Virus record (IMG/VR): IMGVR_UViG_3300025009_000004
Coordinates: 53,662-117,661 of that record
Reading direction: 5' to 3' (one strand)
Source: a virus
DNA: 64,000 bases
Below the pieces are notes generated by a model. That model ran no database searches. It saw only the letters and a list, made by a program, of their open reading frames with translations, and was not told the DNA's origin. Every line of letters starts with the position of its first letter. Position 1 is the stretch's first letter. Position numbers and translations under genes: made by a program. Below, piece by piece: positions 9,085 to 50,206 of this stretch.

Positions 9085-9203
9085 GAAGATTTCAGCCAAC
9101 ACAGAGTTGGATAATTATTAGAAATAATGATATAGAAAATCATTTTGAATACAGGAATGATGCAATTGAATGGTTAGACTATAATATTTGGGCAAAGGAG
9201 TAA
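9003..9203 (+). CDS. Small hypothetical protein
   Basis: AAGGAG upstream; fills the gap before the PMI gene. Confidence 0.45.
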   Translation: MRIIKQTNDLIEMFGRTIDGTEETIKMRRFQPTQSWIIIRNNDIENHFEYRNDAIEWLDYNIWAKE

Positions 9204-9208
9204 ATATA

Positions 9209-10886: not shown

Positions 10887-10905
10887 ATGGTCGCCCCTTT
10901 ACGGT

Positions 10906-11403
10906 TTATTTAGCCGATAACCCTATTGATTCTACTACCTTTTGATATATGTCAATTAATTCGTTTTTACTTCCCTTTTGAATAAATGATACTTGTCCTA
11001 TAAACTCTGGTAATATATATTTCTGCCAATGTTTCATTGCTGAATATACAATGACAGGAACATCTTTCTTGATAAGTATCTTAATTAAATCATTGATATT
11101 GCCGCCCATTACACCGAAATCAATGTCTAATACTGCTATACCAACTATATGATGAAATCCTCCATTTAACCTTGTTATTACCGACATTGCACTGTTAATA
11201 TTCTCAGATAATATAAAGTTATTTAAACCATGACTCTGCATAAACACAGACATCAGCGATAATACAGCAGGATTATCATCAGCGAACAATACATACTTAC
11301 GCGATGAATCAATATTAACAAGTTGTTCTGCTAAATTACGATCTGCGTTATCGTTTAATGTTTGTATTAATCTCTTTGTTTCAGATGTCATGATGTCCTC
11401 CAT
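10906..11403 (-). CDS. Stand-alone response-regulator receiver (CheY-like) protein
   Basis: LFADDN acidic pocket, AVLDID phosphoacceptor Asp, VIVYSA Ser, FIQKG Lys. Confidence 0.82.
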   Translation of the reverse strand: MEDIMTSETKRLIQTLNDNADRNLAEQLVNIDSSRKYVLFADDNPAVLSLMSVFMQSHGLNNFILSENINSAMSVITRLNGGFHHIVGIAVLDIDFGVMGGNINDLIKILIKKDVPVIVYSAMKHWQKYILPEFIGQVSFIQKGSKNELIDIYQKVVESIGLSAK

Positions 11404-11405
11404 TA

Positions 11406-11750
11406 TTAATCTTTTAAACCACAGCGACTTGTTGCTTGTTTAATTTCTGCTACTGCTGTATTCATCGTTTTAAACTCTGATAAAGCCTGTAACATACTTT
11501 GATTATTCAACTGTATCGTGCTATTTAATGTGCTTATTGTTTGAGTAAGCGCCTGGATTGCAGTGTCGCTATTCTTTTCGTTATCAGAAATAATCTGTTC
11601 TAATTTAGTAACATGTTCAAAGTGTTTTTCTATGAATATTTTGAATACCTGAAATGCAGAATAAAGCAGATACATGATAAATACGAAACTTATCGCTGTT
11701 CCTGCCTTAGAGCCGTATTCAATAAATGGTGCAAACTGTTCTGGAGCCAT
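11406..11750 (-). CDS. Putative holin-like membrane protein
   Basis: One TM helix followed by a coiled coil; located in the lysis region. Confidence 0.5.
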   Translation of the reverse strand: MAPEQFAPFIEYGSKAGTAISFVFIMYLLYSAFQVFKIFIEKHFEHVTKLEQIISDNEKNSDTAIQALTQTISTLNSTIQLNNQSMLQALSEFKTMNTAVAEIKQATSRCGLKD

Positions 11751-11809
11751 TGCTAATTCCTTTACTTTAAATTCTGCGAAACCATTCTACTGCAATTCTA
11801 ATTATAACA

Positions 11810-12133
11810 TCATTTGGTGATTGAGTCAACTATGTTTGTCTGTTTTATTTGCACATTGTTCAAATGATATTTCTGCACATGGTCATTTCTAACATCATCA
11901 ACTACAGATAACATCACTAAAAATATAACTACCATAGCAAACATACAGAGCATAAACTCCATGTATAACGAGTCTTTCTTAGGCTCTGAGACGGGAATAT
12001 ATTCGACTAATATTATATCAGGCTCTGGCTGTTTAATTTCTTCTGTTATGCTTTTTTGTTTATTTTTATTCTTCCAAAATTTCATTGAGGAAGTTTCATA
12101 TCTGAATTTATCTAATAATTGACGCATTTTCAT
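11810..12133 (-). CDS. Single-TM membrane protein
   Basis: Hydrophobic FMLCMFAMVVIFLVMLSVV segment. Confidence 0.55.
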   Translation of the reverse strand: MKMRQLLDKFRYETSSMKFWKNKNKQKSITEEIKQPEPDIILVEYIPVSEPKKDSLYMEFMLCMFAMVVIFLVMLSVVDDVRNDHVQKYHLNNVQIKQTNIVDSITK

Positions 12134-12157
12134 TTCTTCTTTTTCCCCTTTTCATCT

Positions 12158-12385
12158 CTAATTCGTTGTTTCTAAGATTTGATTTACTAAATTTTTATTG
12201 TTTGCCATAGATATAAATAAATTAGTTAGACCTCCAACAATGGCTTCTTCGTGTTCGAGCGGGAGCAATCCTTTGATTTGGTGTTCACACAATACTCCTC
12301 TCATCATCGCACTTGTTATAATAGAACAAACATCTTCTCTTTCACAATTCTTAGATATAGAAATTTCTTTTTTGATGAATCCGCA
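12158..12385 (-). pseudogene. Start-less reading frame (-1 frame of the upstream ORF), 3' half of a degenerate phage metallopeptidase-like gene
   Basis: Reads CGFIKKEISISKNCEREDVCSIITSAMMRGVLCEHQ...HEEAIVGGLTNLFISMANNKNLVNQILETTN*. An in-frame TGA lies just upstream and there is no start codon at its 5' end. Confidence 0.45.
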
Positions 12386-12813
12386 TCTTGAAAAACTACT
12401 ATAAATCTTGTTGTATCAAGAGCAACTGCATTACAATAACTCGTTGCCGCCGCATTGAACACATTCTCCGCGCCATTTGGGCTTATGTTGACCGATAACG
12501 CCTGATTGTAAGCCTTCATCGTGCCGCTTTCGTTTATCAAAGACACGACCTGCCCCGCCGTAAGAGCCTCGCCTGCCGTTACCGTAATTGTCTGATTTAC
12601 GCTTGCCGCCGGTATCGCCGCTATTGCATTTTCAACGGTAGAATTAACCTCTGCTTTGGTATAAACATCAGCACTCTTAGCATAACTTTCCCTAACTTGA
12701 CCATCGCTTATCTTATTTTGTGCATATCCATTAGTATATATTCCCATAATTAATACACCAATGGTAAACAAATACACTATTGCCTTAGGCGGCTTCATCA
12801 TAATTGCACACAT
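12316..12813 (-). CDS. Signal-peptide-bearing tail-fibre-like protein, apparently truncated
   Basis: KPPKAIVYLFTIGVLIMGIYTNGYA|QN signal; DVYTKAEV; TAGEALTAGQVV; a single propeller-like blade, then an abrupt end. Confidence 0.6.
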   Translation of the reverse strand: MCAIMMKPPKAIVYLFTIGVLIMGIYTNGYAQNKISDGQVRESYAKSADVYTKAEVNSTVENAIAAIPAASVNQTITVTAGEALTAGQVVSLINESGTMKAYNQALSVNISPNGAENVFNAAATSYCNAVALDTTRFIVVFQDADSSKKKFLYLRIVKEKMFVLL

Positions 12814-12860
12814 CCTTTAAATAATCTCGATACAATATCCCGATCATTATTTCAATTAAT

Positions 12861-13178
12861 TTAATCATTTATTTTCTTCCTTTTTCTTTTAATAACTCTA
12901 TAGCCAATATATATTCCAGCATAAATCATTAGCCATGCTATCATGTGAGCGATCATAAAATAGAACATAGCATAATCATTAGTTTGTATATTAACGAACA
13001 ATGGCATTATCTTAGCCACCATCATTGCTACAAAAGGAGGTAGTCCTATTTTGTCCATTAAGGTTTCAGGGAATGTTAAGATAAGATATGGCCATTTTAA
13101 GGTAGCGCACCAAGACATCGCTATATAATATTCGGCATAACCATGTCCTTTGTTGGATTTGCTATTTTGTATTTTCAT
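12861..13178 (-). CDS. Small multi-TM membrane protein starting MKIQNSKSNKGHGY
   Basis: ATG 13178 preceded by AGGAGA; 2-3 hydrophobic segments and a basic C-terminus. Confidence 0.65.
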   Translation of the reverse strand: MKIQNSKSNKGHGYAEYYIAMSWCATLKWPYLILTFPETLMDKIGLPPFVAMMVAKIMPLFVNIQTNDYAMFYFMIAHMIAWLMIYAGIYIGYRVIKRKRKKIND

Positions 13179-13461
13179 TGTTATTCTCCTCTGTTCTCTT
13201 CTTCCATTCTCTTTCGAGTTTCCAATATTCATAACGCTCACATGCCATGAATGTTAATACGATAAAACAATCTAATCCGAATACGAGCGCCCATGTATTA
13301 TATTCTAATGGAATGCCGATTAATCTTATAGCAACAATCACTGAGAATGAAAATCCAGAAAGCAATGTTATCAAACCAATAAAGGTCAGATAAGCAAGCC
13401 AATCTGGGAAAACAATACCATAACCGTGTCCTTTATTGTTGTTTGACTTTTGTATCTTCAT
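13162..13461 (-). CDS. Two-TM membrane protein starting MKIQKSNNNKGHGY
   Basis: Two hydrophobic helices and a charged tail; directly downstream of the endolysin. Confidence 0.65.
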   Translation of the reverse strand: MKIQKSNNNKGHGYGIVFPDWLAYLTFIGLITLLSGFSFSVIVAIRLIGIPLEYNTWALVFGLDCFIVLTFMACERYEYWKLEREWKKRTEENNNENTK

Positions 13462-13468
13462 AATGGCC

Positions 13469-14059
13469 TCACAGTAATTTATTCACTTCTTTTATAAATG
13501 GATTATTACTACCATCAATAAACGGGCATCCAGGCTTACCAAAATCTGTATGCGTGTTAATTATTTTAACAGGGTGCTTTGACTTAAGATATAGCACTAG
13601 CAATTTACCTGATATTTCCTGTTCTGGTGTAAAATGTTCTCTATTAGTGCTACCCGCAAATTCAACGCCTATGCTATTCTTATTTCCATTAGTGCCGGCA
13701 TGATATGCCACTGCATCGTCAGGAACGAGTTGATGAATATCGCCATTAAAATTAACAAAATAATGAGCAGATGATTTGCCATGCTCTCTTGATGATGTAA
13801 ACCAATTGCATATACTCGACAATGCCTTAACGTCGCCAAAATTATCAGGAACGCCCTGAGAATGGAATACTATCTTGTCTATATTAAGATTAGTTCCTCT
13901 TGCACGAGCATTGCCCGCTTTTATAACTTTATCTCCTAAATCTGATTTAATAACTAACTCCACTTTAGGTTTATCATCTATCTTTAACACAGGAGTCACC
14001 GCCTTTTTCAATGTAATCGTATCTATAACTATATCGTTATTGCAATGTGGACATTTCAT
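13469..14059 (-). CDS. Endolysin, N-acetylmuramoyl-L-alanine amidase (Amidase_2)
   Basis: IVFHS, SSAHYFV, AYHAG, NSIGVEF and HTD..KPGCP motifs. Confidence 0.9.
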   Translation of the reverse strand: MKCPHCNNDIVIDTITLKKAVTPVLKIDDKPKVELVIKSDLGDKVIKAGNARARGTNLNIDKIVFHSQGVPDNFGDVKALSSICNWFTSSREHGKSSAHYFVNFNGDIHQLVPDDAVAYHAGTNGNKNSIGVEFAGSTNREHFTPEQEISGKLLVLYLKSKHPVKIINTHTDFGKPGCPFIDGSNNPFIKEVNKLL

Positions 14060-14080
14060 AATGTGTCACCTATTATAACT

Positions 14081-14560
14081 TTATTTCTGCCATGTATCAA
14101 TAACATCCCAATGCTTGTAATCACTCTTATACTCTGCCATTGATTCTGGCGTTAATGCGTTTACAAAGATATTTGATTGTATGTATTGTTTACCTCTATC
14201 AGATATTATCATAATGTAGTGCCAATTACCAATCTCGCCATTATATAAGAATATCTCTTCAACGCTATCAGCACACTTCTTATATCGAATAAATTCTGAT
14301 ATTAGCCGCATTGCATCGCTACAATTATACATTTTTCTGGCTAATACCTGTGATGGCCTTGCGAATGTATCTAAACGATGAATGGGCAATACATTCATAC
14401 CGTCGGGTTTATACTTAAAGCCATATGTTTGTAGATATAAAGCTAATTCAAAATAGTTACTAAACTTATCGTAGAATGCTTTAACTTCTGCGTCTGTCCA
14501 TTCAGGATAGATAAAATTCCAAAATGTATTAACTATCCAGAGCATTATCTTCTTAACCAT
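14081..14560 (-). CDS. Transglutaminase-like (BTLCP/LapG-like) cysteine protease
   Basis: FKYKPD...DTFARPSQVL...NCSDA...WHYIMII, a Cys-His arrangement. Confidence 0.55.
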   Translation of the reverse strand: MVKKIMLWIVNTFWNFIYPEWTDAEVKAFYDKFSNYFELALYLQTYGFKYKPDGMNVLPIHRLDTFARPSQVLARKMYNCSDAMRLISEFIRYKKCADSVEEIFLYNGEIGNWHYIMIISDRGKQYIQSNIFVNALTPESMAEYKSDYKHWDVIDTWQK

Positions 14561-14840
14561 TATCATCGTCCTTATTCTTGTATTCAAATTTAAATTCATG
14601 CTTAATTTGCGTTGTATCAACAGGATAAAGCATTGTCTGTCTGCCACTATCTCCTATTTCGACCTCAGCGCCGATATAAACTCCTGTACCGCTATGATAA
14701 AACTTACCAACTCGAACTGTTGCATTTTCTGCCTTATACACTGTTATAGATGGCGTTGCTATATAATTGCCCTTGCCATCAACCGTAGCTTTCTTACGAG
14801 CGATTGCTAACGCCTCTTTTAAGATAGCGTTAGCAGCCAC
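14553..14840 (-). CDS. Hypothetical protein
   Basis: Packed ORF in the lysis region. Confidence 0.5.
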   Translation of the reverse strand: MAANAILKEALAIARKKATVDGKGNYIATPSITVYKAENATVRVGKFYHSGTGVYIGAEVEIGDSGRQTMLYPVDTTQIKHEFKFEYKNKDDDNG

Positions 14841-14862
14841 TGTTAGATAATGATTATATAGT

Positions 14863-15396
14863 TCAAAGTGCCACCTTAGCGACTTTAAGTTTAATCTGAT
14901 TTTCTATTTCAGCTTCAATATCATAGCCAGTTACTTTAGCTAAATCTTTAGTTGAATTAGTAACTTTAGGGATTGCTATTGTCATTGCCTCTGCTTTAAG
15001 TTCATCTAAATTAGTTATAACAATAGAACCATCGGATTTACGTTCAACCTTAGCCTTACCAGCAATACCAAGTAAATCATCTGTGCAAGTGTTAAGTATT
15101 ACTGTAAGCTCAACAAGGCGCTTTGCAATGCGTTCATTCTTTATTTTTTTAGACTGCTCTGCTAAATACTCCCATAACGCATCAAACATCGAATCACCTT
15201 TACGCGATATAATAGGGATAACAACTTTAGCAAGCCATGATAATGCTAGTAAAGCAATCGACATAGCACCTTTAAGCAATGTATCTGTCCATGTAGCAGT
15301 TGTTGCTGTTACATCGGCCGATGCTACTGTAGCTGCAAATGCAATGCCCATAAAGATTAAAGTGAATAAGATCGATAAAGATATGATTTTTTTCAT
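14863..15396 (-). CDS. Holin-like membrane protein with N-terminal signal peptide
   Basis: MKKIISLSILFTLIFMGIAFA|A signal, second TM helix, C-terminal IEAEIE...VAKV as in LL-H-type holins; GGAGG RBS. Confidence 0.5.
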   Translation of the reverse strand: MKKIISLSILFTLIFMGIAFAATVASADVTATTATWTDTLLKGAMSIALLALSWLAKVVIPIISRKGDSMFDALWEYLAEQSKKIKNERIAKRLVELTVILNTCTDDLLGIAGKAKVERKSDGSIVITNLDELKAEAMTIAIPKVTNSTKDLAKVTGYDIEAEIENQIKLKVAKVAL

Positions 15397-15427
15397 AAAG
15401 TTTCCTCCTAATATTTATACTGAATTT

Positions 15428-15456
15428 ATAATAGCATTTATTTTATGGAATGTCAA
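15428..15456 (-). promoter_or_regulatory. Sigma70-type promoter for the lysis region
   Basis: TTGACA-17 bp-TATTAT with TG extension. Confidence 0.75.
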
Positions 15457-15479
15457 ATGGAGAACATGCCTGCCTATTA

Positions 15480-15536
15480 TTAATTATTCAAAATATGCTC
15501 TGCCACATTTGCTAATATTAATGATAGTTTTTCCAT
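15480..15536 (-). CDS. 18-aa mini ORF MEKLSLILANVAEHILNN
   Basis: AAGGAGA RBS well spaced before the ATG. Confidence 0.35.
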   Translation of the reverse strand: MEKLSLILANVAEHILNN

Positions 15537-15560
15537 GTGATTTCTCCTTTATTTATATGC

Positions 15561-16841
15561 CTATTTTATGCCGTAGAGAGTAAAAGTTCCGGTAAAATTA
15601 GCGCCTCCGTTAAAAATAGTTATTGATGATATGGCGTTAGTGCTTTTCCATACACCGCCGCCAGTTGTTGAATACCCGGCGCCCGTTCCAGAATCGACGC
15701 CAATGGCATTGAAAAGAACGCCGTGATATGTTGTCGTTATATTGCTGATTGTTATTTCAATTGCATTATATTCCCGCGAGTCTTTTCCTATTTTCATTTG
15801 AGCTTCATTTGTATTAATTGACGCCCCGACTGTGCTACCGCTTGTATAAACACCATTATTACTATAATTATTGCCCGTATCACCATTAAATCGCAAAAGC
15901 GTATCAGCATCACTACACCCAAAGAGTGCAACCACTTTATAACTGTTATAGTCCGTTGAAAACCCCGTGCTAAATGTTAAAGTCGAGGCGTCGTTGGTTC
16001 TGGTTATAGTTTCGATTTTTACTAAATCCTGGCTTGCCGCCGGAAAATCATAATATCCAGAAGTGCCGCCGCTATTCGTTCCATAGTATTTTGAATTGCC
16101 TATGGTGGCTGGATTGATTTTAGTTACTTGTGTTTCAAGCGTGTCAAAACGATTACTATGTGCTGATGAGCTTTCATTATGCACCAGCACTTCTTCCGAG
16201 GTTACCGCGTTTGCTTCAGCCTTAGTGTATCTATCATCTAAATCATCCTGTAAATATCCATCAGTAGTTAATACATTAGTCGATTGTATTACCGCCATCA
16301 AGGGCAATGTTTCATAATATGACACTCGTACATCACTTGTTTCATCAACGTCATATGTCATTGTCACTCTTAGCTTATCTGTGCCAGAATCATCCCATGT
16401 GCTAAGTGCATAGTGTGTAGTTTCATATTGCAATAAGCCGTTCTGTGTAACTCCAACAGTACCACTTATAATAATAGATGATGTAGCATCGTAATCAAAT
16501 ATTCTATAATATCCACTTGCAGCATCACCTTGAGACCTCGCAGTATATTCAAGATTTAAAACACATTCAACAGTAGCGCCAGAACTTGAACTTGATGCAT
16601 AATATCCATATCCTGTTGCTGTTTTATATCCCCATGCTGTGCTATCATCGGGTAATGCCAATGGATTGATCTGGTCAAGGAGTATCTCCGCACTTAATCC
16701 ACTTGCATAATCATAAAATGTATTTGGTTTAATTGCCGATCCTTTTATATAGGTTGGTTCTGCGTTAATAGGGCATATCATGCCGAATAATATACTAATT
16801 AAAAGAATATACCCTATTAAAAATTTAGTTATTGTCTTCAT
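15561..16841 (-). CDS. Signal-peptide-bearing tail-fibre-like protein
   Basis: MKTITKFLIGYILLISILFGMICPINA|E; RYTKAE; HNESSSAH; C-terminal fibre domain (LRFNGDTGNNY...AISSITIF...GTFTLYGIK). Confidence 0.7.
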   Translation of the reverse strand: MKTITKFLIGYILLISILFGMICPINAEPTYIKGSAIKPNTFYDYASGLSAEILLDQINPLALPDDSTAWGYKTATGYGYYASSSSSGATVECVLNLEYTARSQGDAASGYYRIFDYDATSSIIISGTVGVTQNGLLQYETTHYALSTWDDSGTDKLRVTMTYDVDETSDVRVSYYETLPLMAVIQSTNVLTTDGYLQDDLDDRYTKAEANAVTSEEVLVHNESSSAHSNRFDTLETQVTKINPATIGNSKYYGTNSGGTSGYYDFPAASQDLVKIETITRTNDASTLTFSTGFSTDYNSYKVVALFGCSDADTLLRFNGDTGNNYSNNGVYTSGSTVGASINTNEAQMKIGKDSREYNAIEITISNITTTYHGVLFNAIGVDSGTGAGYSTTGGGVWKSTNAISSITIFNGGANFTGTFTLYGIK

Positions 16842-16858
16842 TTCAATACTCCTTTAAA

Positions 16859-19800
16859 TTAATACGCTTCGGTTGTATAGCCATTCCATGGGTTAGTCCA
16901 ACCAGATGCGCCAGCTGGATAATATATCTTAAAGGTCGCATCACAATCTACAAATACATCAGTTCCAAATGTTGTGGGGGCATCGCCAGCGAATGTAGCA
17001 CTTGTTAAGAATGTATTATATGAAAATGCATAATCGCCAATTGTAGTAACGCTGGCTGGTATCTCTATATCACCTTGAAAATTACATGCACTAAACGCGC
17101 CTTGCTTTATTTCTACAAGTCCTTCATGTAAGGTCATATCTGTCAATGGAGTCTGATTGAATGCATACTCTCCGATTGTTATTACAGTTGCGGGTATTTC
17201 AATAAAAGTAAGAGCATAGCATGAATTTAATGCGAAATTGCCGATCGATGTTACCCCAGAATGTATAGTAAACGAATCAATTAAACTACCCTTTAGAGCA
17301 TAATTGCCAATAGATTCAACTGTTGCAACCATGCCATAATTTGTTATCGCTGATGGCACCGCGTATAATATCGTTAAATCTTCACTTAATAAAGCATAGC
17401 CGTCATCTTCGTATACTGTATTAGCCTCTTCAACTGTTATTGTTTCTAATGATGAACATAAGTCAAATGCCTGTTCGTGTATATTTGTTACTGTCGAAGG
17501 AATATTAATTGTTGTAATTGGGGCAGTCCAAAATGCATTTGCGCCTATCGTAAGCAATCCCTCTGGAAGCGTTATAGAGCCAATATTTGGGTTCATAAAC
17601 GCATAGGCATATATTTCAGTAACAAGCAAGTTTTCTACCGTTGTCGGCACAATAAGGCCAGTCCATATATCGCTTGAGCCAGTATAGCTCTCTATCCTTA
17701 TATGAGTGCCAGAGTCTATGGGGGAGTAATTAAAGAAATTACATCTTAACGCAGACATCGCAACAGTTGATTCATTATCAATATCCGTAAGAAATTGCAC
17801 TAATAAACCAAATGTTTCCTCATCAATATCGATAGAATAATCGAACCCTGGGCGCTGTAACACGCCATCAAGGAATATTTGGCATTCTCCAGTCTGCATT
17901 CCGCTTGTATATATGCTAACAAATGCGTCAGCGACTGAGCCTTTCTGATTAAGATATTCAGTAATATTTTGCATATTATCTATTGATAATAATGTTCCCT
18001 GAACAGTAGTTCCAGTTATCTTAATAAATGAAGAATCTACAATAACTTGTTCGTCAGGGATTGCAGCCAAGAGATTTGTTATTTCAGCACTTGTATAGTA
18101 ATTAGTAACTAACAAACTTTCGATGCTATCAATGTCTAATTCTAATTGAGCATGCGTTTTCGTTCCTATGTTAGTTAGCAGCAAGTGATCGATAACACCC
18201 TGTGCAGGAGCTGCCCACATAAATCCATCATCGGTCCTAGTGATGACTTCTCCGGTGGAACCTCCCTCAAACACTACTTCAACGCTTGCTAATCTTAAAT
18301 CAATATTATTTATTTTAGCTTCTGCACTATCTAATCTCAAATCAAGATTATTGATAGCAACTGCTATCGAGTCTAAATCAATATCATGCGCTAATAACAT
18401 TACTGCAATCGTATCAACGGCAGTTTGAACAGTCGTTGCGCCAATGCTACTCGTATCTGTATAAACAGAAGATGATGCTGGCAAAGAATGTATTTTAGTT
18501 ATCTGTGCATTGCTATCTGTTTTATGATTAATATAATCAATAATACCGCCAGCACTTTCATCAAAAGAGCCGGTTTCAGATATTCTATCATAGCAATCAT
18601 AAAGTGTTATCGCGTTTGAACCGTTGATGCTTCTATAGGCATAGCCATTATAGGCTCCGCCTCTATCTACTATTGCCTCTGCGCCACAGCCCATTACTGA
18701 TATTGATTTGCTATTATCAAAATAATAACCTACGCCAGCACCTTCAGCCGCGCAACCTTGCAGTGTGCAATATGTCATTGTTGTAAGTATAAAGCCTGTT
18801 TCAGTCGCGTTATTCGCATAGCAGTTTAAGAATGAAGTTGATGTTCCGCTCCATACGTTAAAAGCATCGCCAACGCACTTCCTTACTGTTACATTCTTAA
18901 AGTTATTCATAATCGGTGTGCTTATTGCGATACCACCATTAGATATATCACTTATGAACAAATCCCTAAATGAATGATATGGGTTGTTTGAATTGCTTGA
19001 TAAGCTAAAATATAAACCACCAACACCAAAAGAAGAGTCTTGCCCTTCTGCAGTTAAGTTCATATTTTCAACGCTTATGCCAACGCAATCTATAAATCTG
19101 AAGTGATGACCGTTAAAGCCGGTTGCATATATATTAGTACCTAAGTAAGTTGTATTTTTGCCATGGCCAACGCCACGAAGCGTAATTCCATGTTTGCTTG
19201 TAAGCGTTATCTGTGATGCTATTCTATAATATCCAGCAGGGAATAACACAACGCCACCAGATGTTAGTGAATTGATAGCGTTATTAATTGCAGTAGCATC
19301 ATTCACTATGCCATCGCCAACTGCGCCAAATTCCATTACGTTAACATACGCCTGAGTTATATCAGTATGTATTTCTGCACTATCTGCTTTGAGATTTATA
19401 AGCGTTTCATGTGTGTCTAAATTGGCCTTATTTGCCTCTGTAAGAATAGATATTGTGTCAAGGTTATCATTTATTAAACTTATCTCAGCCGTTATATCTG
19501 CTAATTCTAATTCAATCGTATCGAGATTATTAACAATACGATCTTCTAAAGTGCCAAGATTGTTTTGAATCGCCAATATTTCAGCAGTTATTAATGCAAT
19601 CTCATTAGTTGTCCATGCCATATTAGCATTAACTAAATCTTCAAGAGTGCTTAAGTTACCCTGTATCGCTAATATTTCAGAAGTGATATTTGCTATTTCT
19701 AATTCTTGCGTTGAATCGTTAAGAATAAGATCATCTAAAGCAGATTCTATTGTATCAAGATTGTTCTGTATTAATTCTATTTCAGCGGTTACTAAGCCTA

Positions 19801-19969
19801 TCTCAACAGTGTTTGAGCCGATATTAGAATATAATGCATTAATATCGCTCTGCACATTGCCATTGGTAGTTTTAATCGCAGTGCCTGGATGAGCATACTG
19901 CGCTTCTGCTATATTTATATTGATAAGTAAAGCAATAATTATAATCAAACTAAATAATATCTTTTTCAT
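16859..19969 (-). CDS. Signal-peptide-bearing tailspike/adhesin: coiled coil, pectate-lyase-like beta helix and BspA-type LRR
   Basis: MKKILFSLIIIIALLININIAEA|Q; heptad repeats; VNVMEFGAVGDGIVNDATAI...FPAGYY; IFLDGVLQRPGFDY; C-terminal IPxTVTxIGxxAF repeats. Confidence 0.82.
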   Translation of the reverse strand: MKKILFSLIIIIALLININIAEAQYAHPGTAIKTTNGNVQSDINALYSNIGSNTVEIGLVTAEIELIQNNLDTIESALDDLILNDSTQELEIANITSEILAIQGNLSTLEDLVNANMAWTTNEIALITAEILAIQNNLGTLEDRIVNNLDTIELELADITAEISLINDNLDTISILTEANKANLDTHETLINLKADSAEIHTDITQAYVNVMEFGAVGDGIVNDATAINNAINSLTSGGVVLFPAGYYRIASQITLTSKHGITLRGVGHGKNTTYLGTNIYATGFNGHHFRFIDCVGISVENMNLTAEGQDSSFGVGGLYFSLSSNSNNPYHSFRDLFISDISNGGIAISTPIMNNFKNVTVRKCVGDAFNVWSGTSTSFLNCYANNATETGFILTTMTYCTLQGCAAEGAGVGYYFDNSKSISVMGCGAEAIVDRGGAYNGYAYRSINGSNAITLYDCYDRISETGSFDESAGGIIDYINHKTDSNAQITKIHSLPASSSVYTDTSSIGATTVQTAVDTIAVMLLAHDIDLDSIAVAINNLDLRLDSAEAKINNIDLRLASVEVVFEGGSTGEVITRTDDGFMWAAPAQGVIDHLLLTNIGTKTHAQLELDIDSIESLLVTNYYTSAEITNLLAAIPDEQVIVDSSFIKITGTTVQGTLLSIDNMQNITEYLNQKGSVADAFVSIYTSGMQTGECQIFLDGVLQRPGFDYSIDIDEETFGLLVQFLTDIDNESTVAMSALRCNFFNYSPIDSGTHIRIESYTGSSDIWTGLIVPTTVENLLVTEIYAYAFMNPNIGSITLPEGLLTIGANAFWTAPITTINIPSTVTNIHEQAFDLCSSLETITVEEANTVYEDDGYALLSEDLTILYAVPSAITNYGMVATVESIGNYALKGSLIDSFTIHSGVTSIGNFALNSCYALTFIEIPATVITIGEYAFNQTPLTDMTLHEGLVEIKQGAFSACNFQGDIEIPASVTTIGDYAFSYNTFLTSATFAGDAPTTFGTDVFVDCDATFKIYYPAGASGWTNPWNGYTTEAY

Positions 19970-19970
19970 A

Positions 19971-20684
19971 TTAATGTGACGCTCCTTCGCGTTTGAATTC
20001 TATTAACATTACGCCACTATTGGCTCCAGTTATATTTATATTAAACTCATTGCTTCCCGCTACAAAACTATCGACTGTTGTAGATATACTATCAGGGTTT
20101 GTTTCAAAAGTAAAGCCTTCATAATAACTTGGCAATCTTCCTGAATAATGGCTAATCGTATATGAACGATTTAAAATATCCGCACTACCAGAATTTGTAA
20201 TTGATAATGCCAATGTATATACGGCTCCAAGTAAGCCAGAATATGTATAAGCGAAGGGGTCTGATGTAATAGGAACTTGTATTTGTGTGGGATTAATGCC
20301 AAGATAAGCTGTTTCAATTGCAGTAATAGAATTACATAATAATTTATAATGTCCTGATGTGAAAGGCTGTCTTACATACGCGCCGGCATAATGCTCTATT
20401 GCTGTTGAATCGCCGCGCCCTCTTGTGCAACTTTGTAGTGTAATAACACCACCAACATCAGCAATACTTTCAGCCCATATTATTTCTTCATCAATACTCA
20501 TCCATGAGGGACACTCAACATCAGAAATAGTCTTACCCGTTGGCAAGACTATTCCGATTGATGTTGCGTCAATAGTTATATCGGCGGCAAGTGTTAACCC
20601 GCCATATTTATACGAGTTATTCTGCTTCGGAAATGTATCTATAGAAGCAGGAAACAACGCAGATATTAAATTAGGTTCAGACAT
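19971..20684 (-). CDS. Tail/baseplate-associated protein
   Basis: FPASIDTF; TLAADITIDATSI...IDEEII...TRGRGDSTAIEH module common in phage tail proteins. Confidence 0.6.
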   Translation of the reverse strand: MSEPNLISALFPASIDTFPKQNNSYKYGGLTLAADITIDATSIGIVLPTGKTISDVECPSWMSIDEEIIWAESIADVGGVITLQSCTRGRGDSTAIEHYAGAYVRQPFTSGHYKLLCNSITAIETAYLGINPTQIQVPITSDPFAYTYSGLLGAVYTLALSITNSGSADILNRSYTISHYSGRLPSYYEGFTFETNPDSISTTVDSFVAGSNEFNINITGANSGVMLIEFKREGASH

Positions 20685-20707
20685 CTTGCTACCGCCTTTT
20701 AATCATC

Positions 20708-20980
20708 TTATTTTTGCGTCAGACTTGTTTTTACATCATCTGGCAATGCTTCAAAATCTCTTGCTCTTTCGATATCTTTGATAACGAAATCAAGTGCTTG
20801 TTTCGCTTTCATTAAATCAGCAGCGCCAAGAATCGCAGGAGAGAGCATTTTGCCATTATCAAACTTAAATACAATAGCGCCTTTATCCGGTGCTTTACTT
20901 TCTTCTAAAGTAATACCACTAATAAATGATGCTGTCTCTTTAATTATCTCTTTGGCTTTCTCGATGTTATTCCCGTTCAT
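20708..20980 (-). CDS. Hypothetical protein
   Basis: RBS present; within the tail operon. Confidence 0.55.
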   Translation of the reverse strand: MNGNNIEKAKEIIKETASFISGITLEESKAPDKGAIVFKFDNGKMLSPAILGAADLMKAKQALDFVIKDIERARDFEALPDDVKTSLTQK

Positions 20981-21000
20981 TTAAATCACCACTCCTATAA

Positions 21001-21279: not shown

Positions 21280-21318
21280 ATAAATTACTCCTTACAATAG
21301 CATTATACTACCTTTATT

Positions 21319-24300
21319 TTACTCTGTTTTTATTAATGTGTCAATCTTATTTTTAAGTTCTATTATCATATTTTCTAATATTTTGATTCTACTCTCGTGT
21401 TGTTGGGTGGCAAGCACATTGTAGACGCTGAAACGATCATATTTTAAAGACTCTGGCTGTCCATTGTTATTAAAATTAACTAAGCTTGGAAAAACATTTA
21501 AAATATCTTCCGCAATAAATCCTATGTCATAATCACCAGATTGTTTAAATCTATAGGCATATGGAGTTAAACAATTGAATTTATCCATAGAAAAGTCTTC
21601 TATTGTCGAGATAATATCTTTATATCGAATTGAGGATGACTTAAGTTTTACAAATCCATTCGCGTCAATAACTAAATCTGTCCCCGTACCCGCCGCCGAT
21701 AAATTTTGGAATTGAACCGTTCCATATGCAAATATCGCAGCGCCAAGGCTTGAGAAATATCCCGCCGTTCCAGTCGCAGACTCGCATATTCCAACGGTTG
21801 CCGATCCGGTTCCACTCGTGATATGGCCGATTATGCCATTGCCCCCGCTTGTAGTGTTTTTCCCATAAACTGCATATTTACCGGAAGCGCTACTCGTTGC
21901 AAAAATTCCATGATTTGAGACAGACGCAAAATGTCCCGCGTACCATTGAGTTGATGTTCCTTTTACGCCGGTGCTGTAGGTGTTTCCTGCTCCCCAAACA
22001 CCAGGAATCCCGGCATTCTCGTCCGTAGGGTTAGATTGGGTATATGACCCGCCGACAACGCCTCCAACTCCATAAATAGTTCTTCCTTCTATAGCAGAGG
22101 AAGCCGCACTACTGTAGGTGTTAGTGACGAGTAAAGCACTATATGCATCAGTGCAAACAATAACCGCTTTTGAGTTTTCAGAATCTGTCGTAAGCGGGTT
22201 ATCCGTTGAGGCGTTACATAATAATAACCTTTTCGCCCATATTGTATTAACATTATTATTATTTATTTGATACTGTCCAACTTTGAAGAAGGCCGTATTG
22301 TCATATCCAAGCATGGCAATCTCGCTAGCAGTAAGGCTTAGTTTATACGTTGTACCAGAGGAAACATGCCCAAGATAAATAGCAGACGATGTCAATTTTG
22401 TATTATAGTATAAGTTTGTATAATCGACACATCCGATTTTAATGTCCGTGCCATTTAAGACAGTATTATAAACGGTTGTTGCGCCATTTATAACATATAT
22501 CCCTAATCCAATATCACCGCTTGCTAAAATCCTTGCCCTATAGTGAGCAACGTCGCTAACAACATTGCCGCTATGCCCTAAATAAACTCCAGTAGCATTA
22601 ATCTTGACGTTGTAGGACTGATGATACTCTGCATAGCCCGCATGATATCCAAGATATACCGCCCCACTTTGGATAATTGTATCAAAATAATATTTAGACC
22701 CCCCATAGGTTACGTAGCCTATGCCTATACCGTCTAAATATGACTGCCCACTAATCATTACTTGCCTGGCGGCTGTGGTTGCATCACGAAATAATAGATA
22801 GTTGCTATTCAAGTAAAACTGATGGGAAGAATATGCAGCGCTATAGCACATGGTTATGCTTCCTGAGCTTATTTGCGTATCATAAATATTAGTCGTCCTA
22901 TACCCCAGATTAATTGCTGTTGGCGTCACAACTAAATTTGACAATGCACATGTCGTTCCGCCAAGGTATATATTGTCTTTGGCCCATAATCCATATGTGG
23001 CATTATCTAAATATCCAAGCTCAACTTTTTTAACATTACTCGCGTCGAATACGTTAAACGCAGTCGAATTTATTTCTACTCTACCATTACCAACTGCGTT
23101 ACGAATGGAAACACCAGTTGTAGTTGCACTAAAGGTATTAACATTGCTTTGATAAATCTGCAATCCGCTTTTAGTCAAATAACAATAATTACTTGCGTCT
23201 GCTTTACTTCTAATCGACAACAAGAAATCCAGATTTATTTCAGAGCCATAAAATATATTAGCAATGCTCGTTATAACAGGCTGAAATTCAACCAAATTAA
23301 CCACAGTTGAATCAGGACTATAAAAATATATAGCAACTGATTTTGCTAATATCGCTTTGCCAGTAGAGAAGTTTTCATAATGAAGCAGGGCCATATCAGC
23401 AACTCCAGAGCCAGTTGTGCTATATTCAAAATATCTATCTGCATCTGGCTTAGTTGCTGATGTAACTATATCGCCAGCATTATTAAACGTATGATCGCCA
23501 GAGTTAAGACATTGTAGCCATACATCTTGAGTCCCTGTGCTTGTTATTTCTTCAAGTTTAATTACAAATCTAACATTGCTTGTCGTATGCTTAAATTTAA
23601 GTTTGATATCAGATATCCATTCAACTTTATTCAAATCTATCTTAACGTAGTTATTTGTCGTTGAAGCAATCGTAAATGTGACGAACTCATTATCAAGATA
23701 ATTAGCATCTAATATATGCTCAGTTGAGCCAGTTTGAACAGCGCCAACGTAAGGAGTTAAAGTCAAATCAGACGATAATTTAAACTTAAATATATTATTG
23801 CCCATATCAACGGCAGTGACATTTTTAGGTACCACATTGTTAGCAACAGAAGGAACGCTTCTTGCACCCCAATAGTCTGTTGCATCAACACGCACCCATA
23901 GTTTTAATGCAGTGTTGGCCGTGAATAAATCCATTTCAGTGGCAGATAATGATATATTTATTTTAGTAGTGAATGTTTCATATAATTTGGGATTATTAGG
24001 GTCTGGATTACTCCAACCTGGAAATTTCCAATCTCCGCTGCCAATTGCTGGTTCTGTTTCTGCAATAGCATATTGAATCCAATATTTCTCTACTTCTTCT
24101 ACTCTTGGAGGAGTGCTTGTGTCGAGCGTAACTGCATCCCAAAATACTTCTGCGCCACCGACCATTGAATTAAGTCTTAAATTAGCAGGAGCCGCAGGAG
24201 GTGTATTGGTTATCGTTATTAAATAAGGATTTACTTGCACGGCTCCGGCCTCATTTAAATAAGTTAAGTTATCTGCTATATCATATGCAGCTAAATATAA

Positions 24301-27300
24301 CTGAACAGGAGATGCGGTTGGCTTAAATATAAACGGATTGGAGTCTAAAGTATATTCTTTCGCTGTATTTAACGTAGCGCCAATAAATAACTTAAGGCCA
24401 TCATATAAGTTTCTGCTTACTTTTGCCGGATTAATCCATGATAATTTTATATCTCTACCGAATGCCCATGTTAACCCTGTAGGTAAATCAGCGGAAGAAG
24501 GCCCAACTGTATCTTTCTTAAATCTAACTACTTGTTCAATGCTATTCTCTGCATTATCAAACGCTCTTATCTTAACTTCAAATTCTTTATATACACCATC
24601 AACCGTATCAGCGCCAAGCATCGCATTTGTTATATTAATTGGCGATCCTGTTGCAGTAGTCCATGTTATTCCGTTATTATAATTATACTCAACTCTATTG
24701 ATTCCAGAGTTAGCGTCTTTTTCATACGCTCTATAATAAATATCGATTCCATTGGTTAATATCTTTTTGTTGATATAACCATTCTTATTTATGGCAATTG
24801 TATTATCTTCTTTATACCATATCTTCTGTATATCAAGATTCGGCGTTGCTGTATCTATTTTACAGTAACGAGAAGCCGTGGTTGCGATAAGACTTCCTTC
24901 TGTTCCATCAGGTCTATATTGAACGGCCTTAACTTGAAACAATACCTTATCCGAAGGGAAAGAATACGCTTGTTTAAATCCAGCAGGAATGAGCATAGAT
25001 ACGTTTGTTGTTTCTTTATCGAATCTTGTTTCGGTAGCAAGAACATATGGCCCTCCACTTGTAGAGATATACCATCTTATTCTGTCTACATATATGCCTT
25101 TAGTAAATTCATTTTGTATCGTAAATTGCATTGATCTGGTATTATAAACGTCTATTAACTGACTATCATTAATCGGAGTTTCGCTAAAGCTATTAAGTTC
25201 AACAGGGAGAGACCTTATTACGGTTGCGCCAGTAATACTTGCTTGTGGCAATATGGCTAAAGTTGACGCAGGGGCATTGCTAAATATTTGAGAGGCAACG
25301 CCAGGAACATCATGAAAGTCTACCGCAACGACCATAAAATAATATTGTGTTGCATAATTTAAAACAGTCCCTGTTTCATCTTTTTCTATTACGGCGCTAT
25401 TCGTCGGACCAACCCAAGCCCTATATGCTATATTAACTGTGGCTAAATTTGCAGGGTCAGTAGACATAAATAACCAAAATTCTTTAAACTGTCTTTGTAA
25501 ATCAGCAGTTCCATAACTCATTGTCCAATTAAGACGCATTACTTTACCATCGAGTTTAGCAGAGCTATAAGTTGGAGAGCCAACTACCGTAGGCGCGGGA
25601 AGCTGCTGCAAAACGGATGCAGTTCCAACTGCTGATTCTTGCGAGTATACTATTTTAGACAAAGTAGTCGATGCATATTTATAATCAACAAAAAAATCAC
25701 CAACGGCTCTTATTAAAAAGAAATAAGCAATGGGAGATGACGGACTAGGATCAATATCGGATGGTAATTGCCAGATATAACTTTGAGCATCTTTGCCGAG
25801 TCTTATTGTGTCATTTAATCTTTCTGCACTATCCCATATGGCCCTTCTATCTGTAATGTTTGTCGGAGTATTACCTATGATTAAAAGCAAAGCATCATAT
25901 TGTGCTTGTGATATTTTTTTAATTTCATATCCTGTTAAAAATGCATCTGTATTTTTTGTCCACTTACAATCAATCTGATGCCTTATTGGGTCATATGTCG
26001 TGGTGAACCCTTGTACATCTGCTGGTTTAGGATTAATTAATAAAGTCTCGCTTGCAATCCTTGCCCTTCTAACGCCAGCATTTGTTGCGTTGTAAACCGA
26101 CCCTATTTCAATAGAATAATTGTGTGTTGTCTCCCAAGCATCTATGTTGAGAAAGTCCTTTGCATCTTGTTCTTTAAAATCTTGTAATGTAATAGTATAT
26201 GTTTTTATTGTGTTAGCAAAGTCTTTTTGAAATAATATCCTTTTTTCCCCATGGTTTTCTCTAAAGGCTAAATATGTTCCATGATAGCCGCCCGCATATG
26301 TCCAATCAACTTGAACAGGAAAATTACTTCCTGTCTGAGTTAGTGTAATTTCACTACTGTCAACAATTAAAGCCGCTAATACTGGATAAGTCCAAGTAGC
26401 TGCTGATGAGTTTTCTGCTGTACTATTGTCATATGCATAGATTTCGTAACCATAGTACTTATTCGCCACTGTTCCATCAATATATGACCATGAAACCATA
26501 TCTGGAGCCGCAGACGCATCTAAATCAGTTAATAAAGTTCTCGTACCATCGACATATTGATCTGATGAACTGTTATATTCAGAACGATATATTTTAAATC
26601 CTTTTAACCCATTATTGCCATATCTTAACGGAACGCTCCAGTTCAATTGAAGAATATAATTAGTTGAGTCGCTTATATTAACTGCATAGAAGTTCTCTGG
26701 TTTTTCTGGAGCTACAAAATCGCCGGCAATAAACTGTATTGATGTAGACCAATCAGAGACATTGCCCGAATTTCTTTGCGCTCTAACCTGGACTTCATAA
26801 AATGTTCCCCTTATTAAATTAAGCATCGGAATATAATAATATCCACTGGTTAGCGCAGTTCCTGCCAAAACATTAGGTTGCTTTGACCAAATAACTGTAC
26901 TTTTCTCTTTATATTGTATTTCAAACATTCTAAAATCATCATCATCATGTTGTTTGATTTTTAGTATAGCGTTACAATTGTCTCCGTTTGAGGCGGTATC
27001 AATTGAAGAAGTAAGGACAACAATTTCATCTAAACCAGTGATAGGATCAACGCCAACGGGTGGAGTGTATGGAGTTACATTATCTGATGTTGATACGATT
27101 ATAGGATCGCTCCATGTCTGCTGTCTATTCGCCATGTTCTTAAGTAATATTTTATAACGAACGACTTCATCTTTAGGAACGTCTCTATCAATAAATTTAT
27201 TTGTTATCTGTAAGTCAATACTATCGATATGTTCATCGTCTTCGAATGTACCACTGTTATCTTTATCACGATATATATCAGCAATAACCTGGCCCGTTAC

Positions 27301-27573
27301 ATCATGGCCAAGTTTGTCTTTTCCTGAGAATATAATCGTCATTTCAACTAACGGCTTGCCGGCTTCAAATCTCGTTACCCATTGTATTTGAGGCATAGCG
27401 GGCGGTATGTTAGAATCAAATGAATTATTGAGTTGAGACACATATAGTGGCTCAATGCCATCCTGCATCGTGGTAGCAACAGATTGAGTGTTAACATCAT
27501 TTACTTGTGTTTTCTGTTCTATCTGTCTATTAATTTGTTCAGGTAGATTTGTATAAAGATTTCTTGTTTCCAT
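21319..27573 (-). CDS. Central tail fibre/host-specificity protein with FN3 domains and C-terminal peptidase S74 intramolecular chaperone
   Basis: Several FN3-like units (YEVQVRAQ...SDWS; PEKPENF; PAAPANL). C-terminus SSIRYKDII...GFIAED...LKYDRF followed by a coiled coil. Confidence 0.85.
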   Translation of the reverse strand: METRNLYTNLPEQINRQIEQKTQVNDVNTQSVATTMQDGIEPLYVSQLNNSFDSNIPPAMPQIQWVTRFEAGKPLVEMTIIFSGKDKLGHDVTGQVIADIYRDKDNSGTFEDDEHIDSIDLQITNKFIDRDVPKDEVVRYKILLKNMANRQQTWSDPIIVSTSDNVTPYTPPVGVDPITGLDEIVVLTSSIDTASNGDNCNAILKIKQHDDDDFRMFEIQYKEKSTVIWSKQPNVLAGTALTSGYYYIPMLNLIRGTFYEVQVRAQRNSGNVSDWSTSIQFIAGDFVAPEKPENFYAVNISDSTNYILQLNWSVPLRYGNNGLKGFKIYRSEYNSSSDQYVDGTRTLLTDLDASAAPDMVSWSYIDGTVANKYYGYEIYAYDNSTAENSSAATWTYPVLAALIVDSSEITLTQTGSNFPVQVDWTYAGGYHGTYLAFRENHGEKRILFQKDFANTIKTYTITLQDFKEQDAKDFLNIDAWETTHNYSIEIGSVYNATNAGVRRARIASETLLINPKPADVQGFTTTYDPIRHQIDCKWTKNTDAFLTGYEIKKISQAQYDALLLIIGNTPTNITDRRAIWDSAERLNDTIRLGKDAQSYIWQLPSDIDPSPSSPIAYFFLIRAVGDFFVDYKYASTTLSKIVYSQESAVGTASVLQQLPAPTVVGSPTYSSAKLDGKVMRLNWTMSYGTADLQRQFKEFWLFMSTDPANLATVNIAYRAWVGPTNSAVIEKDETGTVLNYATQYYFMVVAVDFHDVPGVASQIFSNAPASTLAILPQASITGATVIRSLPVELNSFSETPINDSQLIDVYNTRSMQFTIQNEFTKGIYVDRIRWYISTSGGPYVLATETRFDKETTNVSMLIPAGFKQAYSFPSDKVLFQVKAVQYRPDGTEGSLIATTASRYCKIDTATPNLDIQKIWYKEDNTIAINKNGYINKKILTNGIDIYYRAYEKDANSGINRVEYNYNNGITWTTATGSPINITNAMLGADTVDGVYKEFEVKIRAFDNAENSIEQVVRFKKDTVGPSSADLPTGLTWAFGRDIKLSWINPAKVSRNLYDGLKLFIGATLNTAKEYTLDSNPFIFKPTASPVQLYLAAYDIADNLTYLNEAGAVQVNPYLITITNTPPAAPANLRLNSMVGGAEVFWDAVTLDTSTPPRVEEVEKYWIQYAIAETEPAIGSGDWKFPGWSNPDPNNPKLYETFTTKINISLSATEMDLFTANTALKLWVRVDATDYWGARSVPSVANNVVPKNVTAVDMGNNIFKFKLSSDLTLTPYVGAVQTGSTEHILDANYLDNEFVTFTIASTTNNYVKIDLNKVEWISDIKLKFKHTTSNVRFVIKLEEITSTGTQDVWLQCLNSGDHTFNNAGDIVTSATKPDADRYFEYSTTGSGVADMALLHYENFSTGKAILAKSVAIYFYSPDSTVVNLVEFQPVITSIANIFYGSEINLDFLLSIRSKADASNYCYLTKSGLQIYQSNVNTFSATTTGVSIRNAVGNGRVEINSTAFNVFDASNVKKVELGYLDNATYGLWAKDNIYLGGTTCALSNLVVTPTAINLGYRTTNIYDTQISSGSITMCYSAAYSSHQFYLNSNYLLFRDATTAARQVMISGQSYLDGIGIGYVTYGGSKYYFDTIIQSGAVYLGYHAGYAEYHQSYNVKINATGVYLGHSGNVVSDVAHYRARILASGDIGLGIYVINGATTVYNTVLNGTDIKIGCVDYTNLYYNTKLTSSAIYLGHVSSGTTYKLSLTASEIAMLGYDNTAFFKVGQYQINNNNVNTIWAKRLLLCNASTDNPLTTDSENSKAVIVCTDAYSALLVTNTYSSAASSAIEGRTIYGVGGVVGGSYTQSNPTDENAGIPGVWGAGNTYSTGVKGTSTQWYAGHFASVSNHGIFATSSASGKYAVYGKNTTSGGNGIIGHITSGTGSATVGICESATGTAGYFSSLGAAIFAYGTVQFQNLSAAGTGTDLVIDANGFVKLKSSSIRYKDIISTIEDFSMDKFNCLTPYAYRFKQSGDYDIGFIAEDILNVFPSLVNFNNNGQPESLKYDRFSVYNVLATQQHESRIKILENMIIELKNKIDTLIKTE

Positions 27574-50205: not shown

Positions 50206-50206
50206 T

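Follow-up and report, generated by a model that had tools for sequence, protein, structure and literature searches.

An uncultured, siphovirus-like phage with a genome of ~117 to 120 kb carries a group of fibre-like proteins that begin with Sec-type signal sequences, here called leaders. The window, that is, the whole stretch of DNA that was analyzed, is a 64,000-nucleotide (nt) part of this genome (IMG/VR virus record IMGVR_UViG_3300025009_000004, positions 53,662 to 117,661). We observe the grammar of the leaders, their translation, their conservation, the gain of a leader at a gene split, and the domain content of the proteins behind them; export, cleavage, oligomeric state, targets, and timing we infer from these features. 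Taken together, the sequences suggest that swappable fibre-like proteins leave the infected cell by export and are not mounted on the virus within it. We consider it likely that the leaders export these proteins. That the exported proteins then work on surface glycans of the infected cell itself or on the surrounding matrix is, in our judgment, about as likely as not, and we favor such action over docking onto virions after lysis; a role in virion assembly is possible, but not favored.

Four open reading frames (ORFs) on the minus strand, starting at 19969 (1,036 amino acids [aa]), 16841 (426 aa), 15396 (177 aa), and 12813 (165 aa), bear a leader. Leaders were called with a hand-written rule for the n-h-c pattern and by comparison with relatives, and cut sites were placed by eye or by the rule. 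The rule flags 4 of the 63 ORFs in the window, exactly these four, all of them within 12316 to 19969 (12% of the window). Every one of these n-h-c leaders ends in Ala. The claim of an earlier note on this DNA, that four genes here begin with signal peptides, holds up. Hydropathy over 12 N-terminal residues is 2.65 to 3.46 in the four leader ORFs and exceeds 2.3 in no other ORF of the window. The same note had described the 2084-aa and 1535-aa tail proteins as lacking a signal peptide, and their N-terminal hydropathy agrees, showing no leader-like N terminus in either; the tape measure and the endolysin are without a leader as well. Applied to C16, a complete related genome, the rule picks out 5 of 153 ORFs, 3 of them in the fibre module, and on the bacterial contigs of the metagenome-assembled genome (MAG) G001 it flags 31 of 343, which shows it to be neither blind nor indiscriminate.

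All four leaders in the window have an n-region charge of +2 (MKK, MKTITK, MKK, and MMKPPK), an h-region of 13 to 16 residues, Ala at position −1, and A, I, A, and G, respectively, at position −3. There is no twin-arginine (Tat) motif in these n-regions. A lipobox (signal peptidase [SPase] II, Cys at +1) is absent from the four leaders and, by a regular-expression scan, from the N-terminal leaders of the minus strand between 9000 and 21000. Pfam gave no match to a C-terminal sorting domain of type IX cargo (e.g., PF18962) in the four leader-bearing proteins.

Translation of the leaders can be judged from ribosome-binding sites and from codon changes among relatives. AGGAG or AGGAGG motifs lie upstream of three starts, at a distance of 7 nt for 16841 and 15396 and of 12 nt for 19969. 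At 12813 the Shine-Dalgarno motif abuts the ATG, and translation more likely begins with the Met of codon 5 or 6, a shift that would leave the leader unaffected. Related loci were available from IMG/VR (L001, L002, and L007), from metagenomes (L009 to L013), and from one genome-collection contig (L014, which is C16 of G001). Over codons 1 to 23 of the 1036-aa gene there are 10 synonymous and 3 replacement differences from L011, 9 and 4 from L010, and 7 and 8 from L014. All replacements stay within the sets K/R, I/V/L/F, or E/D, and both alanines of the cut site are invariant. Change in the leader is thus mostly synonymous or conservative, which argues that translation does not start downstream and that the segment is constrained at the protein level; a downstream start, the first objection foreseen in the earlier note, is not borne out.

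We then read 13 leader types from the window, L001, L011, L014, and relatives found by protein search (P0006, P0174, and P0183 among them). The n-region charge is +2 or +3 in all 13; the h-region spans 12 to 16 residues in 12 of them and 23 in one (the L014 198-aa protein); position −1 is Ala throughout; and position −3 is A in seven, S in two, and I, G, V, or L in one each. Many of these leaders are mutually unrelated in sequence, even inside one genome. A common grammar on unrelated sequences points to a generic targeting signal and not to a specific docking surface. Homologues within the phage group keep a leader, with unrelated leaders of the same grammar standing on homologous bodies, contrary to the loss that the earlier note had allowed for. 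Gln occupies position +1 in 7 of the 13 types, with a probability of 1e-4 at a background of 10% and 0.007 at 20%, although three of the seven may share ancestry.

The arrangement of the genes is the same in the window, L001, L011, and L014: a leaderless 237-aa gene is followed by a fibre gene with a shared leader and then by one to three further fibre-like genes. In all four, the product of the first fibre gene begins with this leader, and its mature part starts with QYAHP..AIK..NGNVQ. The bodies that follow the shared leader vary, with or without the beta-helix, with long helical repeats, and with different tips. In these four diverged relatives, each fibre-like gene that follows the 237-aa gene and is translated separately bears a leader of its own, often an unrelated one. 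In P0006, a homologous beta-helix stands behind a different leader; a scan of IMG/VR with P0183 found no relative.

The clearest case is a split gene. A 1.48-kb cassette of the window, replaced by 44 nt in L001, contains the leucine-rich repeat (LRR) end of the 1036-aa gene, its stop codon, a ribosome site, and a new leader with 29 residues of the 426-aa gene. L001 instead has a single 872-aa ORF that spans leader, beta-helix, and a body equivalent to the 426-aa protein. Comparison of the two arrangements indicates that the N terminus of the split gene has a leader and the fused form has none at that place, whichever direction the event went. A different rearrangement may be present in L014: an ORF at L014 15384 to 16346 starts like a GIY-YIG homing endonuclease (as judged by eye) and ends in frame with the C-terminal knob of the fibre family, so that it looks as if a fibre gene had received an inserted endonuclease gene. 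Endonuclease-like ORFs of a similar kind are found at L014 13126 to 13770 and L001 18639 to 19673.

Outside the phage group, relatives of the same domains mostly lack leaders. Among 12 beta-helix-bearing matches, the rule flagged all 6 from this group and none of the 6 others, one of which (P0046) is leader-like by eye. Nine relatives of the 426-aa protein were flagged among the best 150 of 619 (E ≤ 0.001); of the 112 among these 150 that are small tip relatives (≤260 aa), 1 was flagged. The leader is therefore an added, lineage-specific feature. A separate observation comes from L060, an unrelated IMG/VR contig with 49% GC, where six or seven consecutive tail-module ORFs (6051 to 15209) have leader-like N termini, one with a lipobox; the C-terminal tip of an 838-aa protein encoded there is 83% identical to that of P0174, a member of the family studied here.

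The domain content of the leader-bearing proteins is that of phage fibres and bacterial surface proteins (Table 1). Residues 208 to 273 of the 1036-aa protein match PF12708 at 47.3 bits (cut-off, 27); the protein also matches the tailspike PHROGs 14558 and 7458, is 25 to 32% identical to phage tailspikes by tblastn, and has PDB matches to its beta-helix in 7chu and 2vbe. The nearest solved relatives of its LRR_5 part are bacterial cell-surface proteins, and LRR_5 domains are typical of secreted proteins of that kind, a domain precedent for export. Residues 24 to 200 gave only coiled-coil-type matches in Pfam, PHROG, and PDB searches, with no related particle-binding domain among them.

For the 426-aa protein, the model of the tip has 187 BFVD matches at E ≤ 0.001 (best, 9.6e-14), several of them with collagen or lambda Stf fibre repeats. 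A Foldseek search of the PDB returned no match to the tip at E ≤ 0.001, and against solved structures VIA Z was at most 7.7, a middling value with weak lectin- or carbohydrate-binding module (CBM)-like character. We therefore call the tip simply a lectin/CBM-like beta-sandwich. The PDB sequence search found nothing at E ≤ 1 for the 426-aa and 237-aa proteins. Pfam and PHROGs assigned no family to the 426-aa and 177-aa proteins, the L001 480-aa and 156-aa proteins, the L011 582-aa protein, or three small tip homologues.

The other two leader-bearing genes stand somewhat apart. The 177-aa protein has no fibre features, heads the lysis-side unit behind an 11/12 promoter match at 15428 to 15456, and is conserved (82% in L001 and L007); its predicted topology marks it as a membrane protein rather than a fibre. 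A likeness to LL-H-type holins was considered for it and set aside, as Pfam offered nothing of that kind even at E ≤ 10. The 165-aa gene, judging from alignment with its relatives, is a truncated remnant: its body ends ~38 residues into a domain that extends hundreds of residues further in P0006, its YTKAE-type start resembles the intact 177-aa gene of L001, and DNA homology of the locus to L001 ends at 12595, with ~2.9 kb of L001 missing in the window. Motifs of the YTKAE type were read directly from the leader-bearing fibre-like sequences. The fibre-like character that the earlier note had seen thus applies to three of the four proteins (by the beta-helix and tailspike PHROGs of the 1036-aa protein, the tip of the 426-aa protein, and the YTKAE-type motifs) and not to the 177-aa membrane protein. 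Its placing of the genes between the tail and lysis modules likewise needs one correction, for the 165-aa gene lies downstream of the endolysin and holin-like genes.

Table 1. Features of the window discussed in the text (positions are those of the 64,000-nt window)
Feature	Position	Strand	Description or basis
1036-aa mosaic protein	16859..19969	−	Leader, repeat coiled coil, pectate-lyase-like beta-helix, BspA-type leucine-rich repeats
Leader of 1036-aa protein	19901..19969	−	23 codons; predicted cut after AEA, Q next
Repeat-rich helical stalk, residues ~45-200	19370..19837	−	Translation; weak coiled-coil-type PHROG match (phrog_77)
Beta-helix (tailspike/depolymerase-like) body, residues ~208-581	18227..19348	−	Pfam PF12708, PHROGs, tblastn, PDB
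BspA-type leucine-rich repeats, residues ~773-1024	16898..17653	−	Pfam LRR_5 (PF13306), 144.3 bits (cut-off, 27.7); PDB 4h09 and 4gt6 at E 1e-21
1.48-kb cassette that L001 lacks	16673..18150	−	44 nt stand there in L001
426-aa fibre-like protein	15561..16841	−	Own leader, codons 1-27 (16761-16841); middle part common to other family members
C-terminal beta-sandwich tip of 426-aa protein, residues 270-426	15564..16034	−	AlphaFold, predicted local distance difference test (pLDDT) 91-98
177-aa protein	14863..15396	−	Leader of 21 or 27 codons, second membrane helix, charged helical tail
165-aa (more likely 161-aa) putative leader-bearing fibre remnant	12316..12813	−	Leader 12721-12813
237-aa protein	19971..20684	−	No leader; always directly 5' of first leader-bearing fibre gene; weak tail-protein PHROG match
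Sigma-70-like promoter match, 11/12	21316..21344	−	Ahead of 92-90-237-1036-426 gene run; weak
2084-aa conventional tail fibre	21319..27573	−	fn3 and C-terminal S74 chaperone domain (27.1 bits; cut-off, 22); no leader
Lysis genes	12861..14059	−	Amidase_2 endolysin 13469-14059, no leader; holin-like membrane proteins 13162-13461 and 12861-13241

The 237-aa gene is closely tied to the fibre gene behind it. In the window, L001, L011, and L014, it abuts that gene or overlaps it by 1 nt, and the 237-aa proteins of these four are 45 to 98% identical, with a strongly conserved C-terminal half. The codons for EGAS at its C terminus (19971 to 19990) contain the Shine-Dalgarno motif of the next fibre gene, which suggests that the 237-aa and fibre proteins are made together. 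The same overlap stands at the same place in L001, L010, L011, and L014, and the EGAS stretch may be under a double constraint. An AlphaFold model of the 237-aa protein (five sequences) had a mean pLDDT of 41.9 and was unusable, and an Atlas look-up returned only leads below 0.85. As for transcription, sigma-70-like matches of 11/12 lie in four intergenic gaps (21344, 15456, 14100, and 11829). Promoter-like sites in the region are not above shuffled sequence (61 versus 58.7 ± 8.0), and neither are terminator-like sites, so any operon limits drawn from them are tentative.

How these proteins might work can be outlined as follows. The 1036-aa and 426-aa proteins and their counterparts would be expressed as part of a unit beginning ahead of the 92-aa gene and taking in the 237-aa gene. 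Sec would thread them across the host membrane, and signal peptidase I would cut after Ala, often exposing Gln. Folding outside the cytoplasm would then yield stalked fibre-like proteins whose heads (the beta-helix, the leucine-rich repeats, or the lectin-like beta-sandwich) may cut or bind surface glycans. The site of action would be the envelope or matrix of the infected cell, with no mounting on a tail in the cytoplasm. Removing or masking receptors in this way could keep sister phages from being wasted on infected cells and debris, and loosening of the capsule or matrix could aid release.

We favor action at the surface of the infected cell because the leaders are generic, the conventional tail parts are leaderless, the LRR part has the character of a surface protein, and no anchor domain is recognizable. 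Several points weigh on the other side. The genes sit where siphovirus receptor-binding proteins sit, and their modules are swapped as in such proteins. The conserved mature N terminus QYAHP..AIK..NGNVQ and the tight coupling to the leaderless 237-aa protein fit a virion fibre with a docking end. Two features that might have been looked for in exported proteins did not appear: the five residues that open the mature part are not significantly depleted of K/R (1 of 65; P = 0.14), and no excess or pairing of cysteines was found among the 13 of the 1036-aa protein. Finally, in a host with only one membrane, exported proteins in soluble form would be lost by diffusion unless bound to the wall.

It is conceivable, though in our view unlikely, that assembly takes place in two compartments and that these proteins are true accessory fibres of the virion, exported, processed, and folded outside, which attach to released particles, either at lysis or later, with the 237-aa protein at the tail tip as a possible docking site. 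The genes directly follow the tail genes, their mature N-terminal module is common to very different bodies, as in fibre anchors, and modules are common to leaderless fibre-type proteins. The invariable coupling of the 237-aa gene and the strong conservation of the C-terminal half of its product also fit, as does L060, with its six or seven leader-bearing tail-module ORFs and a tip 83% identical to that of a family member. However, the mature N terminus offers only ~25 residues before the stalk, with no recognizable anchor domain, and other leader-bearing fibres have different mature N termini. The virion already has a giant leaderless fibre of 2084 aa, and the 237-aa protein has no PDB or phage-record matches and no usable model. 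A more specific form, to which we give slightly less credence still, has the accessory fibres exported by Sec, trimmed to Gln (which would form pyroglutamate), folded outside, and snapped onto a 237-aa adaptor of finished particles at lysis. If it were true, L060 would be a sign that tailed-phage assembly has a branch both widespread and undescribed.

That there is no export at all, and that the hydrophobic N termini serve as a membrane tether, an oligomerization element, or a removable assembly element of fibres put together in the cytoplasm, strikes us as improbable. Tailed phages assemble in the cytoplasm and the genes lie in the structural region, which speaks for such a role, and a precedent of a kind is at hand: in the accessible text of their paper, Matrishin et al. 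read the predicted leaders of capsid proteins in Porphyromonas phages as segments removed by a protease (PMC10367356). Against it stands the full signal-peptide grammar, including Ala at −1, across 13 leaders. Their h-regions, within 12 to 16 residues in all but the one of 23, have the length of cleaved leaders and not of membrane anchors. A specific structural element would moreover be expected to keep its sequence within a genome, which the leaders do not, and a new leader stands at the gene split.

It is just as improbable that the proteins are cargo serving the host, as exported adhesins or matrix enzymes that alter the surface behavior of a carrier cell (e.g., attachment of an epibiont to its partner) outside the lytic cycle: the BspA-type repeats are adhesin-like, a sigma-70-like promoter match precedes the unit, the bin of a Patescibacteria MAG contains the whole genome of a related phage, and Bdellovibrio has cell-owned sets of secreted fibres, but the unit is placed within the late structural and lysis region, a search of part of the window's ORFs turned up neither an integrase nor a lysogeny gene, and the binning link to the host is weak.

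Several known systems resemble the one proposed here in part. Phage tailspikes and depolymerases (the Sf6 tailspike, PDB 2vbe; PDB 7chu; and annotated tailspikes of Streptomyces and Vibrio phages) have the same beta-helix, a modular layout, and swapped distal parts. Known phage tailspikes, however, carry an N-terminal particle-binding domain and no leader, whereas the 1036-aa protein has a cleavable-looking leader, a short motif, a helical stalk, and an LRR C terminus of bacterial type. BspA-type LRR surface proteins also have LRR_5 behind a Sec-type leader but are not fused to a tailspike body. The same holds for a 598-aa BspA-type LRR protein of the Lachnospiraceae phage PV036455.1 (L054 5710 to 7506), which has a leader-like N terminus, is encoded among replication genes, and has no tailspike body. 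PblA and PblB of Streptococcus mitis phage SM1 are tail-fibre-like proteins that act on the bacterial surface; they are not known to have a leader and are reported to reach the surface only through phage lysis.

Closer in layout, as far as the accessible description goes, are the mosaic adhesive trimer (MAT) fibres of Bdellovibrio bacteriovorus, which combine a signal peptide, a conserved N-terminal part, a fibre body, and mosaic phage-like tips and have been shown on the Bdellovibrio cell surface (PMC10769870). In that same text, MAT fibres are encoded by the cell and carry a beta-rich domain, conserved and ~130 aa long, after the signal peptide, whereas the proteins studied here are encoded by a phage and have ~25 residues followed by a helical stalk. 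WceF of Pantoea stewartii is, in the available portion of its description (PMC7949094), a trimeric glycan enzyme of tailspike fold that is exported and acts on its producer's own polysaccharide; it differs in having a Tat signal and a chromosomal gene in an exopolysaccharide cluster, as opposed to Sec-type leaders on phage-borne genes. Phages of Porphyromonas gingivalis have genes whose predicted SPase I leaders are followed by Gln at +1, in line with the Q-rule of Bacteroidetes (PMC10367356 and PMC5837995), but in the accessible parts of these papers the function of the genes is described as unknown and tail fibres are not named; the proteins here are fibre-like.

In view of the MAT fibres, WceF, and the Porphyromonas phage leader genes, the "undescribed route" of the earlier note is too strong as a general claim. 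On the sequence evidence, what the finding would add is phage-borne, Sec-targeted, fibre-like proteins that bind or cut glycans. A printed description of Sec leaders on phage tail-fibre-like proteins was not found in a literature search that did not extend to subscription journals and drew on accessible text, and the portions available of PMC9658697 and PMC5723332 contain nothing on leaders of fibres.

Evidence on the host is mixed. Shine-Dalgarno sites precede 45 of 63 window ORFs under a loose rule and 37 of 63 under a stricter one, and 111 of 153 ORFs of C16 under the stricter rule. Bacteroidota rarely use such sites, so the host is probably not a member of that phylum. Gln at +1 at the level seen in these leaders is, according to the accessible text of PMC5837995, found in Bacteroidetes and a few others such as Ignavibacterium, most groups being below 20%. 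The Gln +1 frequency and the heavy Shine-Dalgarno use pull in opposite directions.

The related genome C16 (116,531 bp) was binned in the 1.1-Mb MAG G001, whose RpoB is 79 to 83% identical to proteins named Magasanikbacteria or Patescibacteria. An Atlas look-up of this RpoB yielded no informative taxon. No matches to Omp85, LpxC, or plant-type glutaminyl cyclase were found in G001, an incomplete MAG. Within it only C16 matches the 1036-aa protein; the other contigs match 2 of the 63 window proteins, at 33 to 41% identity, and ~438 kb of them contain no spacer-like match to the window. Shine-Dalgarno use also differs, at 76 of 262 genes on the bacterial contigs versus 111 of 153 on C16. With co-binning as the only tie, no spacer match, few protein matches, and this difference, the link to the G001 host is weak. 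By the tape-measure rule of 1.5 Å per residue, a tape measure of 1938 aa corresponds to a tail that would roughly equal an ultra-small cell in length, which speaks against a Patescibacteria-type host. The GDP-mannose dehydratase of the window was considered as a host clue and proved uninformative, with ~65% identical homologues across many phyla. A lipobox-bearing o-spanin candidate was not found near the lysis genes in a regular-expression scan of the minus strand from 9000 to 21000, a hint, not proof, of a single-membrane host.

The remainder of the window is that of a siphovirus-like phage. Its GC content is 0.33 to 0.42, and members of the cluster occur on contigs of up to 120,104 bp. Terminase-like and portal-like genes, the 1938-aa tape measure (PhageMin_Tail, 80.9 bits), and the 1535-aa protein are all encoded on the minus strand, as are the glycosyltransferase block and the TnpB gene described below. 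Megablast of positions 12000 to 32200 against 50,697 phage records gave zero matches, and the terminase is 20 to 25% identical to those of Bacillus and Clostridium phages, from which we conclude that there is no close cultured phage. Likewise, tblastn of the portal, 426-aa, and 237-aa proteins against the same records gave zero matches.

Some neighboring genes are also worth recording. The two holin-like proteins (12861 to 13461) are nearly identical over their first 14 residues and then diverge, and this is likewise so in L001 and L007. A 114-aa protein (11406 to 11750), conserved in L001, L007, and L014, begins with a single membrane helix, followed by a helical ectodomain and by a Cys at the C terminus, an i-spanin-like layout for which a lipoprotein partner was not found. 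Three GT4-type glycosyltransferases and a GDP-mannose 4,6-dehydratase (452 bits) lie within the structural block at the boundary of head and tail genes (49072 to 53519, with 9188 to 9724), and they might let the phage glycosylate one of its own components or one of the host's. A TnpB-type transposase gene (33118 to 34263; phrog_506, E 9e-99) separates the tape measure from the distal tail genes.

If the leaders function, tailspike- or fibre-like proteins of some phages leave the infected cell before lysis. This would be a step of the infection cycle that is missing from textbooks, with self-directed destruction or masking of receptors, loosening of the matrix, or maturation of virion parts outside the cytoplasm as possible roles. 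The case is a useful one, as a conventional leaderless fibre stands beside a leader-bearing set in one genome and a leader appears exactly at the N terminus newly created where a gene is split. Export of this kind would also bear on the prediction of receptor-binding proteins from metagenomes, on host range read from "fibre" genes, and on the search for soluble depolymerases.

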